The notes beneath the pieces were generated by a model, which saw only the letters and a list, made by a program, of their open reading frames with translations, was not told the DNA's origin and searched no databases. Below are positions 10,547 through 15,441 of a stretch of DNA of 64,000 nucleotides, one piece after another. Made by a program: the position numbers and the translations under genes. Source of the DNA: Macrostomum lignano (Eukaryota); NCBI GenBank assembly GCA_002269645.1, contig NIVC01002558.1:1-64000 (forward strand), read 5' to 3'. Within the stretch, counting starts at the first letter, position 1. Each line of letters begins with the position of its first letter.

Positions 10547-11533
10547 CTATTCGAGATCTGCTTTTGGTAACAGTAATCCATTGCCCATAACGTTTGAATT
10601 TAAGAAAATTCCTGAACCTGCTTTTGGTCTCATTTCGAGATATAATCCGCTTCCGTCGTGTTTTTCAATGATATTAAAATCTTTTCCTAATTTATTAAAA
10701 ATTTTCTGAACAGCTGGTCTAAAATTGGATCCAATATTGTCAAAAAATCCTTTAGCTTTCTCACCCGTTTTTTCTAAAGTTTGACCAAATTCATGTAGTT
10801 TATCTGCTACAACTCCACTTCCTTGGGTTGTTCCTTTTAGTACCAAACCATTCCCGTGATTTGTTCCTTGCAAGAGTAAACCTTTTCCGGCTGCTAACCT
10901 AGCTTCTGCATTTCTTTTTTGCTCTGCTGTTGCTGAACTACTATTAATGGTATCAATAAGTTTCTGTTTGAATTGTGCGTCCTGCGTTATTTGCTGTCTT
11001 TGAAATTCTGCATCTCGTTTGGCTTTTTCGTCCGCAGCTTTTTTGTCATTTACTGCTTTTGCAATTCCAGCTGCTCCGCCAGCAACTCCTCCAGCTGCTC
11101 CAATTCCTGCAAAAATTATTGGGAGCAAAGCTGCAAGGGGTAAGATTCCCCCCTGTTTCGCTCTTAACTCTCCTAGCTGTTTTACATTATCATGAATTCT
11201 TTTTCCGGCTAAACCGACTGCTCCAGCTGCACCAAGTCCTAAAAGAAGCGGTAGAATGGGTAGTAATCCGCCGTCCTTTTTAGTGTGAGTCTCCATTAAA
11301 AATTTCACATCGGAGTCTGTCAACCTATAATTTCTGCCGCGATTCTTAAAGGATATTGGCCTTCCTTCTTGTGCATATTTTGCTGCGAGTTTAAATGTAT
11401 CGATGTCGTAGTCAAACTTTTTACCTAATCGATCCAATCTTTTTAACATTGTGTGGCTATGTTTATTATCATCTAGATCTAAAGTATCTACAATTTCTCC
11501 TATAAAATATAAGCGGTCGTTATCTGTGTCCAT
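10547..11533 (-). CDS. Gly-rich virion core/membrane-active precursor protein (adenovirus pX-like segments)
   Basis: GGLLPILPLLLGLGAAG and GGILPLAALLPIIFAGIGAAGGVAGGAAGIAKAV resemble the adenovirus pX C-terminus. Eight GG or GxG motifs followed by hydrophobic residues. Confidence 0.65.
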   Translation of the reverse strand: MDTDNDRLYFIGEIVDTLDLDDNKHSHTMLKRLDRLGKKFDYDIDTFKLAAKYAQEGRPISFKNRGRNYRLTDSDVKFLMETHTKKDGGLLPILPLLLGLGAAGAVGLAGKRIHDNVKQLGELRAKQGGILPLAALLPIIFAGIGAAGGVAGGAAGIAKAVNDKKAADEKAKRDAEFQRQQITQDAQFKQKLIDTINSSSATAEQKRNAEARLAAGKGLLLQGTNHGNGLVLKGTTQGSGVVADKLHEFGQTLEKTGEKAKGFFDNIGSNFRPAVQKIFNKLGKDFNIIEKHDGSGLYLEMRPKAGSGIFLNSNVMGNGLLLPKADLE

Positions 11534-11543
11534 TTTTATATTG

Positions 11544-11942
11544 TTAAAATTTCTTTAATCCTTTTCCACCTTTAATAGTATTTAACATTTTATTAAAATC
11601 CTGAATATCTTTATTACTTATTGGTGCGCTTTTCGTGGGGGTTTCTGTTGGTTGTGCGGCTTGTGCCAGCTTTAAATCTTTTATTGCATTTATTTGTGAG
11701 AGGGTGTCGTTAAAATCTCTCAATTTCTTTAGTTCTTCTGCCGCTCTAGCTGCTTCAATTCCGCCCTTTACGGCGTTGGTTATAGAGCCTGCTGCAGAGC
11801 CAGCTTGCCCTATAAGCCCCATATTGTCTTTAACAAAATTTGCTGCTGTTCCAACCACATCAAAAAGCCCCTCACCTCGGTATTCAACTGGGTCTCCTAC
11901 CTGCAATTCATTCAGATTTTGCATATGTGTAACGTGTGTCAT
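11544..11942 (-). CDS. Small virion core-like protein with an amphipathic segment after a GEG motif
   Basis: YRGEG-LFDVVGTAANFVKDNMGLIG... and C-terminal IKGGKGLKKF. Confidence 0.55.
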   Translation of the reverse strand: MTHVTHMQNLNELQVGDPVEYRGEGLFDVVGTAANFVKDNMGLIGQAGSAAGSITNAVKGGIEAARAAEELKKLRDFNDTLSQINAIKDLKLAQAAQPTETPTKSAPISNKDIQDFNKMLNTIKGGKGLKKF

Positions 11943-11980
11943 TTTTTGTTCTATTTTTAGTAACAGAAAAAGATTGTCTG

Positions 11981-12078
11981 CATTCCATTTAGACCAGATT
12001 TTAGACCAAATTTTTGAAAACGAAAACCAAAACGATAGTCTAGTTTTGTTTGGTCTAAAATCTGGTCTAAATGGAATG
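11981..12078. repeat. Perfect 30-bp inverted repeat with 38-nt loop
   Basis: cattccatttagaccagattttagaccaaa (11981-12010) is the exact reverse complement of 12049-12078. Confidence 0.95.
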
Positions 12079-12160
12079 TTGGGTGGGTAGGTGAGCTGAC
12101 TATAAATAGCTTCTATTCTTTCCGACCCTTCGCGCCTGCGGCGCGGGCAAGGGGTTATAG

Positions 12161-12431
12161 AGTAGTAGTGTATAAAAAGACGCTTCTAGATCAGACCTTA
12201 TTTTAATGACCGTTTTTATGGTCTTAAGAGGGGGGACGCGAGGGGGGTGTTGGGGAGTGTTTGGAAGTGTTGGGAAGTGATTTTTATTGTTAGGGGTGAT
12301 TATGGGTGATTAGATGTGTTAATGGTGTTTAGATGTGTTTTTTTATTTACCCCCCGTGTCCCCCCTCTAGACCCTTAAAACGGTCATTAAAAAAGTGCTC
12401 TGGGTCTAGAAGCGTCTTTTTATATACTACT
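12161..12431. repeat. Polinton terminal region with a nested, inverted ~85-bp copy of the terminus
   Basis: 12164-12246 (agtagtgtataaaaagacgcttctaga...ttttaatgaccgtttt...gaggggggac) matches the reverse complement of 12350-12431. Confidence 0.9.
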
Positions 12432-12637
12432 CAGGGCGTCAAGTTTGATTTTAGGGGCGCTAAGTTGGATACCAGGGGCGCCAAGTTTGATTTTAGGGGT
12501 TCCAAAATGAATGTCAATGGCGCCGCAAATAACTCGCGCGTTGACTTTGCCCGACAACAAAACGTTTCAGTGAAGGACGGGGCACAGACGCGTTGGTTGG
12601 AAATTTACAGCAGCTGATTTCACAGCGTCAAGAGCAG

Positions 12638-12851: not shown

Positions 12852-15441
12852 ATGGCCTGGCAAGACTACGCCGACGAGATCCGGTGGCTGGTGCGCACCG
12901 GGGCGCCAATCTCGGTCACGCAGCTGTTCTACTCGCTCGTGATGCCGACAACCCTGGCCTTCTGTGGCTACCTCGGCAAAGAGGAGCTTGACTCGGCCGG
13001 GCTGGCCATCTCAATCTTCCAGCTGAGCGTGGCCAATTTCGCCAGTGCGGTGCGCTGGGGCATCATGCCGTTCCTGGCGCACACCATGGCCGGCAGCAAG
13101 CCAGCTCGGGTTGGCATCTTCGTGCAGCGCGGCCTGCTTGCCTCCCTGCTGCTGGCCTTCTTCAGCTGGACTCTGGCCTGCAATTCGGCCAATCTGCTCA
13201 TCGCCACGGGCCAGGACCCGGCCATTGCGGTGAACACTGAGATGTACTTCCTGCTGCTCAGTCCGGGTTGCCTTGGCATCATCGCATTCAGAGCTCTAGT
13301 TGCTTATACTGACACGCTGGGCCGGCTGTGGCCAACTCTGCTGGTTCACGTGATCGGGTTCTTAGTTAACCTGCTGCTGCAGTACGTGCTGGTGCTGCAC
13401 ACGGACCTGGGCTTGGCCGGCTCGGCGATTGCTCTGTCTGTCACCCTGGTTCTGCTGGCCGTGTTTCAGGCCATCTTCATCTGGAGGCTGCGGCTGTACA
13501 AGGACACCTGGACGGGCTGGTCGCCGAGGGCCTTCCTGGGCTGGGGCAAGTTCTTCGGCGGCATGCTGCCCGCCATCGGGACCCAGACGCTGTGGATCTT
13601 CGGCACCGAGGTTGGCAATTTTCTAGCCGGACTGCTGGGCAAGTCGGAGATCGCGGCCGAGTCGCTGCTGTTCCAGATCAACTTCCTGGCCTTCCTGCTG
13701 CCCGTGGGGCTGGGCAGTGCCGTCATCGCCAGGGTGGGAGCTTACCTCAGGTGCGAATGGGGACTGGGGATCAAGCTTAGGGTTATTGTGGTGCACCAGC
13801 TGGGATCAAATTAGGGTTATTGTGGTGCACCAGCTAGGATCAAGCTTAGGGTTATTGTGGTGCACCAGCTGGGATCAAATTAGGGTTATTGTGGTGCACC
13901 AGCTAGGATCAAGCTTAGGGTTATTGTGGTGCACCAGCTGGGATCAAATTAGGGTTATTGTGGTGCACCAGCTAGGATCAAGCTTAGGGTTGTTGTGGTG
14001 CACCAGCTAGGATCAGGCTTAGGGTTATTGTGGTGCACCAGCTAGGATTAAGCTTAGGGTTATTGTGGTGCACCAGAGGTTCAATTAGGGTTATTGTGGT
14101 GCACCAGCTGATCAAATTTGGGTTGTTGTGGTGCACCAGCTGATCAAATTAGGGTTATTGTGGTGCACCAGCTGATCAAATTTGGGCTAAACCAACCTCA
14201 GCCAACAGGAGCCGGAGCGGGCCAAGCGGACCTCCCGCGCCAGCCTGCTGTTTATGTCCGTCACCGGCCTGCTGGTTGGCGGCATCTTCATGGCGCTACG
14301 GTTCCAGATTCCCAAACTGTACTCGCTGGACGCGGAGTCCACCAACCTGTTCGTGAGCCTTATGCCGTACCTGGCGGTGTACACCACTCTGCAGCTCATC
14401 GCCTATCCTTGCGTTGCCACCCTGAGAGCCTGCAATCACCATGTAGTTGCCATGGTGATCAACTTTATTGCCTACTATGTGGTAAGTGGGTCGATTTTTT
14501 GGTTGATTTCCCAGCAAACTTACTAAGTCAAATTCCATCGTTGCCCCAGTGAAAGATTCGAGTCCAGGACCTTCACTTCCCTAAGTGACAGATTCGAGTC
14601 TAAAAACTTTATTTCCATGTGAAGGATTCGAGTCTAGGACCTTCATTTTCATAATGAAGGATTCGAGTCCAGGACTTTCAAATTTCTATATTGAAGGATT
14701 CGAGTCCAGGACTTTCAAATTTCTATACTGAAGGATTCGAGTCCAGGACTTTCACATTTCTATATTGAAGGATTCGAGTCCTGGACTTTAAAATTTCTAT
14801 ATTGAAGGATTCGAGTCCAGAACTTTCATTTCTCCACGGATGGATTCAAGTCCAGGACCTTAGGCTTAATTTATATAGTGAAGGAATCGAGTCCAGGACC
14901 TACACCTAAGCGATTCTCAAACACTCAAAACGCAATCTCCTCTACCGCGACACAGGTGAGCCTCCCGCTGGGTGTCTCCCTGACCTTCGCCGCCGGCTGG
15001 GGCCTGCGAGGCCTCTGGGTCGGCTTCGTCTCGGCCTCGGCCACCTTCCTGGTGCTGCTGCTGCTGGCCATGCTGCGCTCCGACTGGCGCCGGCGCTCCA
15101 ACCTGGCGCACGCTGACGCCGAGTTCGAGACCGATGCGGAGGCTCCGCTGGCAGCCGGCGAGCGGGCGCCGCTGCTGATGGCCGAAGAGGACGACGCAGA
15201 GGATTGGCAGCTGCTGGATCGTCAACAGAAGCAGCGGCAGCAGCGAGGCAGCAGCAACCGCCAGGTTTGGTGGCCAGCAGTCCGCGCCAAGCTGCCAGTC
15301 CTGGGCGCGGCAGTTCTGGCGCTGCTGGCCTCGGCGACGATTCGAGTGGTGGCGCCGCCGCGGATTCCGCTGTACCCGATGGCGAATGCCAGCAGCTGGA
15401 ACTCGACGCTGCCTCCGGTAGCGACACTGACTACTAATTAG
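12852..15441 (+). CDS. SLC47A-like: MATE family multidrug and toxin extrusion transporter (SLC47-like); exons 12852-13750, 14202-14481, 14956-15441
   Basis: Hydrophobic 12-TM pattern with FCGYLGKEELDSAGLA, GRVGIFVQRG-type, EVGNFLAGLLG and ARVGAYL motifs. GT-AG junctions keep the frame (GAYLS|QQEPERAK; YYV|VSLPLG). Confidence 0.92.
13767..14180. repeat. Intronic minisatellite, ~39-bp unit containing TTAGGG
   Basis: Unit gatcaagcttagggttattgtggtgcaccagct(g/a)g. Confidence 0.9.
14550..14900. repeat. Intronic degenerate minisatellite, ~40-bp unit
   Basis: Repeated gaaggattcgagtccaggacttt core. Confidence 0.85.

Follow-up and report, generated by a model that had tools for sequence, protein, structure and literature searches.

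Fold-back termini nested in the inverted repeats of a Macrostomum lignano Maverick/Polinton and their association with polymerase class

The element and its right terminus

The window, that is, the whole 64,000-nucleotide stretch analysed here (Macrostomum lignano contig NIVC01002558.1), opens within an AT-rich element that terminates at position 12431; the contig begins inside the element, whose own left end is thus missing. The features mapped are as follows.

1..6511: remaining element in the window, with the end of the ATPase gene, a likely penton, a likely protease, fibre-like and unknown ORFs; partly broken
6512..10461, minus strand: protein-primed family B polymerase, class 1, with an endonuclease VII-like insert; four ORFs in the window copy (broken)
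10456..12161: segment between polymerase and fold-back, with ORFs 10547-11533 (minus) and 11544-11942 (minus); common to A- and B-type elements
11981..12078: second perfect inverted repeat, 30-bp arms and 38-nt spacer, just inside the right terminal inverted repeat (TIR) and upstream of a 132-aa ORF
12124..12431: right Maverick/Polinton TIR (308 bp), type A; in other copies the left end agrees with it over precisely these 308 bases and differs beyond them
12131..12145, minus strand: mini-hairpin (6 bp, GCA loop) at the inner TIR edge, common to end types A and B
12161..12163, plus strand: extra AGT preceding the inner arm
12164..12245, plus strand: inner arm, an inverted copy of the terminus
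12240..12349, plus strand: C-free run of 110 nt (the other strand G-free), containing a predicted unpaired loop of about 100 nt
12350..12431, minus strand: outer arm, running up to the integrated terminus (AGTAGT when read inward)

Penton, protease and fibre are presumptive labels based on gene order and motifs. On the host side, a short tandem repeat (12437-12500) adjoins the element, a host MATE-family transporter gene lies at 12852-13814 and onward, some 420 bases from the insertion, and the stretch 15700-63300 holds many long minisatellite arrays with periods of 8-54 nt.

The element is a Maverick/Polinton: a full copy in C110 carries an integrase, a packaging ATPase, a family B polymerase, TIRs and a 6-bp target duplication, besides a weak double-jelly-roll (DJR) match. 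The integrase matches rve (PF00665, E 2.9e-7, slightly under the curated cut-off) in the C110 copy, outside the truncated copy of the window, and has 1169 relatives, most of them with PF00665; the ATPase matches Pox_A32 (PF04665, E 3.1e-7) above its cut-off, and the capsid match is DJR-like (PF21738, E 1.5e-4), below cut-off and on a fragment only. The likely protease has no Pfam match. Polymerase motifs are visible in the class-1 polymerase, which has no match to PF03175 in the Pfam scan; 4522 relatives exceed 1000 aa (about 1000-1700 aa) and some carry PF03175, as does the class-2 polymerase introduced below (E 1e-18). Searches of solved structures with both polymerases gave no useful match. 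Judged from other copies, the window copy being truncated, the TIR measures about 280-380 bp and complete elements mostly about 18 kb, and 6-bp target duplications stand immediately outside the TIR, at the outer AGTAGT, in 16 of 21 end pairs. Ranges given for Mavericks in the accessible part of PMC10748475 are 100-1500 bp for TIRs, 5-8 bp for the target duplication and 13-25 kb for length. Pfam scans of 18 window and 13 further ORFs, many of which match nothing, detected no HUH Rep nuclease. The ORF at 10547-11533 (minus strand) encodes 328 aa with hydrophobic Gly/Ala-rich stretches and weak sub-threshold matches to adenovirus protein X and SseC; its product may be a membrane-active virion protein as described for adintoviruses. 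In C110 the middle of the element (about 5.3 kb, penton to unknown ORFs) is tandemly doubled, giving a copy of 23.2 kb, by duplication or assembly error.

At the terminus, a 271-bp fold-back unit is nested in the ordinary 308-bp TIR. The left ends of other copies settle the question, raised by the first-pass annotation of this DNA, of whether the nested inverted repeat belongs to the TIR: it is part of it, at both ends, and a complete element thus carries two fold-backs, one per end. The inverted copy of the last ~82 bp described in that annotation is borne out (12164-12245 against 12350-12431, about 85% complementary), as is the second terminal start pointing outward, AGTAGTAGT, which begins the inner copy at 12161-12169 and reads toward the host. 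The true terminus, compared with this longer start, is AGTAGT only (ACTACT, 12426-12431), and host flanks differ directly after 12431 in every independent copy. Of 14 distinct arm pairs from diverged copies, 13 retain the GT adjoining the inner arm, the 14th being out of register; a second family, described below, has it too. The loop had been reported to lack C, which is correct, the exact run being 12240-12349; it is composed of degenerate 9-10-nt repeats and reaches at least 100 nt in 38 of 40 aligned ends. Positions 12155-12437 are predicted to fold with -65 kcal/mol on each strand (z -11.8 and -14.1), about 100 nt staying unpaired, and none of 200 shuffles folded equally well.

The 26-letter arm pattern has 213 matches in the 764-Mb genome and none in the control, the 40 best matches are all collinear with the window, and the family comprises about a hundred such ends. 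An assembly artefact or fold-back read, which the first-pass annotation had named as a finding that would undo its reading, is excluded by these copies elsewhere in the genome and has a negligible probability: the same ~15% difference between arms recurs across insertions with different flanks, and contigs from four public runs include the arms, the arm-loop joins and the host junction, even if no single one spans the whole stretch.

Two smaller repeats accompany the unit. The exact 9-nt core of the mini-hairpin is found in 57/57 type-A and 33/35 type-B ends, the same motif having served as the end-finding anchor. Both arms of the repeat at 11981-12078 were found in 41 of 50 loci checked, some of them overlapping; it occurs independently of end type, in most type-A and some type-B copies, and a variant skipping 11972-12123, and with it this repeat, appears in contigs of all four public runs.

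Two end types and two polymerase classes

Copies picked by their integrase exposed ends with unrelated arms, and 92 distinct ends, found via the TIR inner anchor (three anchor hits lacking an outer arm were left out), fall into two types. Type A, that of the window, comprises 57 ends, all of which fold from base 1 with 66-81 long-range pairs around a loop of 90-143 nt that holds 0-2 G when read from the 5' end. Type B, whose pattern has 56 genome matches, comprises 35; here 31 ends fold with 53-77 pairs starting at base 9-19, around a loop of 55-82 nt with 6-9 G in the same reading, so that the last 8-18 nt are left unpaired, and four ends lack the long stem. Since it was TIR sequence that led to many of these ends, the set is biased toward intact ones, a bias from which the polymerase-picked set described below is free. 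Type-B arms are unrelated to type-A arms, the common parts being only the first bases, the C/A-rich repeats and the GCA mini-hairpin at the inner edge, and no type-B end has an inner AGTAGT. A loop free of C and a second AGTAGT, both reported as traits of the terminus, therefore hold for the end type of the window and fail in its sister type. The fold is predicted to be more stable on the 3'-end strand in 47/57 type-A and 34/35 type-B ends, a bias that could be mutational in origin.

One insertion with an intact 6-bp target duplication has no long stem at either end (L105; L102/L104/L109), so the long stem is not strictly needed for integration. Two left ends without an outer arm, C1051 and C3031, were considered as a third end type and rejected, since they share more than 600 flanking bases and thus represent a single insertion with its hairpin lost. 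Lacking a target duplication, C2834, whose left end is type B and whose right end is type A, was taken to be a chimera. At L088 (C904:20400-21600) a left end is followed by a degenerate tandem second loop and inner arm and then by sequence typical of right ends.

End type follows polymerase class. Polymerase-side ends of class-1 elements are 29 type A and no type B, and those of class 2 are 14 type B and one type A, the sole exception being C2322, where a type-A end is joined to polymerase 2 (Fisher p 1e-10, an overstated value, as there are two lineages and some insertions are counted twice). When 20 stretches were picked by polymerase 1 alone, four had no recognisable terminus and the 16 that had one were all type A, with the stem running from base 1 and 67-79 pairs; polymerase-2 stretches yielded five polymerase-side termini, type B or B-like, and six stretches gave none. 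All nine type-B polymerase-side ends compared lack a match to the polymerase of the window. Polymerase 2 has 1206 aa, 46 genome matches and 22% identity to polymerase 1 over 166 residues. The association rests on two lineages plus family 2, the copies within them being kin.

The surroundings of these two segments are held in common. Between polymerase and end, the window and eight type-B copies share 84-95% DNA identity across 1.4-1.7 kb, the alignment reaching 12161-12163 in five of them and stopping at 11973 in three; left of 6524, identity is 78-99%. The only parts that do not align between the types are the polymerase (6525-10455) and the fold-back (12162-12431), and the replaced part of the TIR almost coincides with the interval 12161..12431 singled out in the first-pass annotation. 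Many type-B copies have an integrase and a capsid that are 95-100% identical to their type-A counterparts, and with an integrase so nearly identical across end types the arms are unlikely to be integrase sites. Among family 1 copies, several versions of the sequence just inside the polymerase-side TIR exist, with no relation to end type, and there are copies, such as C506 and C581, whose two ends both carry integrase-side sequence.

Paired change of the arms and the possible role of the fold

The two arms change together. In type A, 14 of 75 pairs are changed on both sides (0 of 500 shuffles; 25 of 52 distinct TIRs, all diverged subtypes included), and in type B 17 of 77 (1 of 500 shuffles; all 29 distinct TIRs), or 15 two-sided changes when the four stem-less ends are removed (2 of 500); these shuffle controls ignore the kinship of the copies, and the pairing structure is taken from one member. 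In 12 of 14 distinct pairs the outer arm differs from its own inner arm by 0-3 mismatches per 26 nt and from the arm of the window by 2-6, under near-identical polymerases; two pairs are out of register. Copying from arm to arm can be seen: C3750 and C1307/C904, the latter being a single insertion sampled twice, have an inner arm overwritten with letters of the outer arm, and the C2245 end bears a 19-nt run-on copied from within the inner arm, as expected of a folded 3' end. In the subtype of the window the same two alleles segregate at mirror sites, and at mirror site 10/259 a mismatch occurs in 18 of the 50 ends (Fisher p 0.06, not significant). Arm pairing is thus kept over long time scales and loosely over short ones, as template switching would give. 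Predicted folding, paired arm changes and arm-over-arm overwriting together support the earlier proposal that a single end may form a stem-loop of about 270 nt.

Taken together, these observations are best explained if the fold-back is the replication origin matched to the polymerase, which we consider probable, and the chances that this origin segment acts as a folded single strand appear roughly even. Under this explanation the 270-bp unit, the outer part of the TIR at both ends, would be exchanged together with the polymerase gene. Strand displacement would leave an end single-stranded, and the 3' end of the displaced strand would fold locally back on itself, presenting a duplex at the priming triplets in type A and beside them in type B with no need to await the opposite end, which lies 18 kb off. 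Such a fold would give the matching polymerase its duplex and shield the 3' end, and the folded inner arm could be copied to mend or lengthen a 3' end that had been trimmed, a step that would at the same time preserve the likeness of the arms; as the type-B tip is unpaired, this repair step is inapplicable there. The two unpaired loops of one strand, being complementary to each other, could in addition nucleate an end-to-end panhandle that keeps both TIRs alike. Weighing against this explanation are the stem-less insertion, the exception C2322, the unpaired type-B tip, the mismatches at mirror site 10/259 and the foldless family 3 described below.

Retroviral integrases remove a 3' dinucleotide. 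Since the inner arm carries a GT past the integrated end, free ends may be two bases longer than integrated ones. It is tempting to go further, as a tentative and on balance doubtful proposal, and to suppose a two-part module, polymerase plus fold-back origin 1.7 kb away, that would be swapped pairwise on a common capsid and integrase body, with ends that rebuild a duplex origin locally and an inner arm that records the untrimmed end; each end of a free genome would then have two more bases, which the integrase would trim and fold-back copying would restore.

A polymerase-specific origin could also act as double-stranded DNA, the arms being inverted binding sites for the complex of polymerase and terminal protein or for a partner, with folding incidental. 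Such an origin would explain the polymerase link equally well, and the 9-10-nt repeats of the loop could set a spacing; yet loop length varies (90-143 nt), arm letters vary under near-identical polymerases with each outer arm tracking its own inner arm, and arm-to-arm copying implies that the fold forms, which makes this alternative rather unlikely. The same copying lends itself to another account, in which template switching or fold-back synthesis at linear ends made the inverted duplication and refreshes it in each lineage, the polymerase link being descent only. The mechanism is a known one, and template switching alone homogenises inverted arms without selection, according to the accessible parts of PMC8604942 and PMC3820800; conversion and run-on events occur here, and the stem-less insertion and the foldless family 3 (below) are in keeping with a dispensable by-product. 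It is nevertheless unlikely, because the same end-anchored architecture arises from three unrelated sequences, is kept in 57/57 type-A and 31/35 type-B ends, and remains linked to the polymerase across the intervening 1.7 kb common to both types.

Parvoviruses such as AAV have hairpin ends that occur in flip and flop forms, and an end folding on itself with its last base paired, as in type A, resembles them. A 3' end that folds and primes its own synthesis in a rolling hairpin would account for the pairing of the very last base with continuing template in type A and family 2 and for the 19-nt run-on, and such a mode is proposed for palindromic ends of virophages as well as polinton-like viruses (PLVs) in the accessible text of 10.64898/2026.07.28.741278. 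Hairpin transfer, however, would leave both loop orientations, and none of 40 aligned ends is flipped; a search with three junction patterns, limited to the subtype of the window, gave 0, 0 and 9 matches, with no flip among those read. The flip-flop inversion of the loop that the first-pass annotation proposed to look for thus finds no counterpart among the aligned copies. With an unpaired tip in type B and a protein-primed polymerase in both types, the rolling hairpin is improbable. Still less credible, and very improbable in our judgement, are two opposed working origins or a self-moving 271-bp mini-element. Either might be read from a unit that opens and closes with terminal triplets, and two opposed protein-priming origins had indeed been suggested; as a conserved feature they find no support, given that type-B ends fold without an inner AGTAGT and that target duplications lie at the outer AGTAGT in 16 of 21 pairs. 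The first-pass annotation was right to deny a separately inserted mini-element: the flanks of the 271-bp unit form no target-site duplication, and no solo unit occurs among the 92 distinct ends, found as they were via the TIR inner anchor, or among the 40 best matches. Cytosine deamination may be considered as the source of the C-free loop, but in simple strand displacement it is presumably the other strand that would stay exposed longest, and G-free repeats of the same kind also lie outside the loop in types A2 and B.

Related systems and other element families

The likeness to Mavericks/Polintons (adintoviruses) is extensive: a protein-primed polymerase, an RVE integrase, an A32-type ATPase, TIRs, 6-bp target duplications and AG...CT ends. 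In protein-primed replication a single strand is displaced, whose ends are thought to anneal as a panhandle (accessible parts of PMC11886824 and 10.64898/2026.07.28.741278), and PMC11886824, in its accessible part, states that panhandles lack direct evidence even in adenovirus and PRD1. The two TIRs of one element are near-identical here, as correction through a panhandle predicts. The first-pass annotation had set the fold-back against pairing of the two opposite ends; here the TIR also pairs the two ends of the element, so that the fold-back is no substitute for it and the two coexist. The difference is that within each TIR the outer part recurs as an 80-bp inverted copy, with a loop of 55-143 nt between the two. 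The accessible text of PMC8502044, PMC10748475, PMC12220804 and 10.1101/2022.07.12.499685 contains no passage on a hairpin or palindrome at Maverick ends, and this structure is not described in the accessible parts of PMC11296320 and 10.1101/2022.07.28.501842.

Two published systems come close from different sides. In virophages and PLVs of Halocafeteria seosinensis, 52-nt palindromes lie within the TIR, are tied to the kind of replication gene and have a proposed hairpin role (10.64898/2026.07.28.741278, accessible part). In common with the present case, the palindrome sits in a TIR adjoining the target duplication and goes with a replication gene; as far as that text extends, the palindromes were sought with a gap of at most 10 nt and accompany mostly replication genes other than the protein-primed polymerase pPolB. 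Here, by contrast, the arms measure 80 bp and the loop 55-143 nt, the element is an animal-type Maverick with pPolB, and two versions exist for two pPolB classes. Nematode Polintons share one body with either of two barely alignable polymerases, pPolB1 or pPolB2, a situation like that found here, and their TIRs are called 'highly conserved' (PMC10748475, accessible part), whereas in M. lignano the outer 270 bp of the TIR is replaced along with the polymerase. Nematode swaps under conserved TIRs would, on this comparison, count against reading the fold-back as a polymerase-matched origin.

More distant parallels concern the ends themselves. Streptomyces has protein-capped linear ends whose 3' single strand folds back, hairpins with GNA loops and fold-back repair of trimmed ends (PMC5449611, accessible part), an analogy that would support the polymerase-matched origin as the best explanation. 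According to the same text, Streptomyces telomeres hold several short palindromes in the first 170 nt and use dedicated Tpg/Tap proteins; the present ends have a single long stem, and it is on the 5'-end strand that their GCA hairpin reads. Casposons, as described in the accessible part of PMC4046053, are likewise self-synthesizing elements with palindromes inside their TIRs, but are prokaryotic and use a Cas1 integrase. Terminal palindromes and polymerase swaps are each already published. Neither a long fold-back nested in the TIRs of animal Mavericks nor a coupling of such a structure to polymerase class was found in the literature covered, which was mostly open and did not include Repbase, Dfam, the founding papers of 2006-2007 or supplements, so that an earlier mention is possible.

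Maverick replication is known only as a model, and the fold-back makes the question of its origin testable. One element body with two polymerases and two unrelated ends that share the same kind of fold amounts to a natural paired comparison, which points to the origin and to what the polymerase may read, be it shape, sequence or both, and yields the predictions that flip-flop is absent and that free ends are two bases longer; it also bears on the exchange of replication modules among polinton-like viruses.

Within the same genome the structure recurs unevenly. Family 2, whose integrase is about 60% and whose polymerase about 50% identical to those of the class of the window, has a 25-bp stem flush with the terminus, seen at five ends. 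Family 3, with AGTAGTAG ends and its own polymerase (16.8 kb, 413-bp TIR, 6-bp duplication), served as the negative control and has no such fold (z 0.9, 0.5, 0.1, -1.6, -2.7). Short hairpins are all that is seen in a fourth group, whose ends read ACTACTA; the fold-back is therefore not general to Mavericks. Beyond M. lignano, an alignment-based search gave 80 metagenome and 4 viral loci, mostly short; a local inverted repeat was present in 1 of these 84, away from any recognisable end, and an integrase-based scan of viral contigs gave no match.

Some further elements were noted along the way. Members of the ACTACTA group (C491:285031-295129, C558:479036-488550 and C173:199634-208632; L261-L269) are 9-10 kb long, with a PF03175 polymerase, TIRs of 920-1180 bp and 6-bp target duplications, and their TIRs hold several GCA-loop mini-hairpins resembling the one at the inner edge of the TIR in the window. 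A reading of the elements of about 8 kb found with the integrase P0170 as non-Mavericks was rejected because the same integrase occurs in the 16.8-kb family 3. They have a family-3-type integrase, very many copies and tandem-repeat TIRs, and are possibly shortened Mavericks (C754:359768-368175 and C10:1493946-1502139; L132-L133, L138-L139). A further family, with a class-1-like polymerase at 48% identity and open frames of up to 1276 aa, is present in C25, C176, C1449, C2071, C781, C4675 and others.
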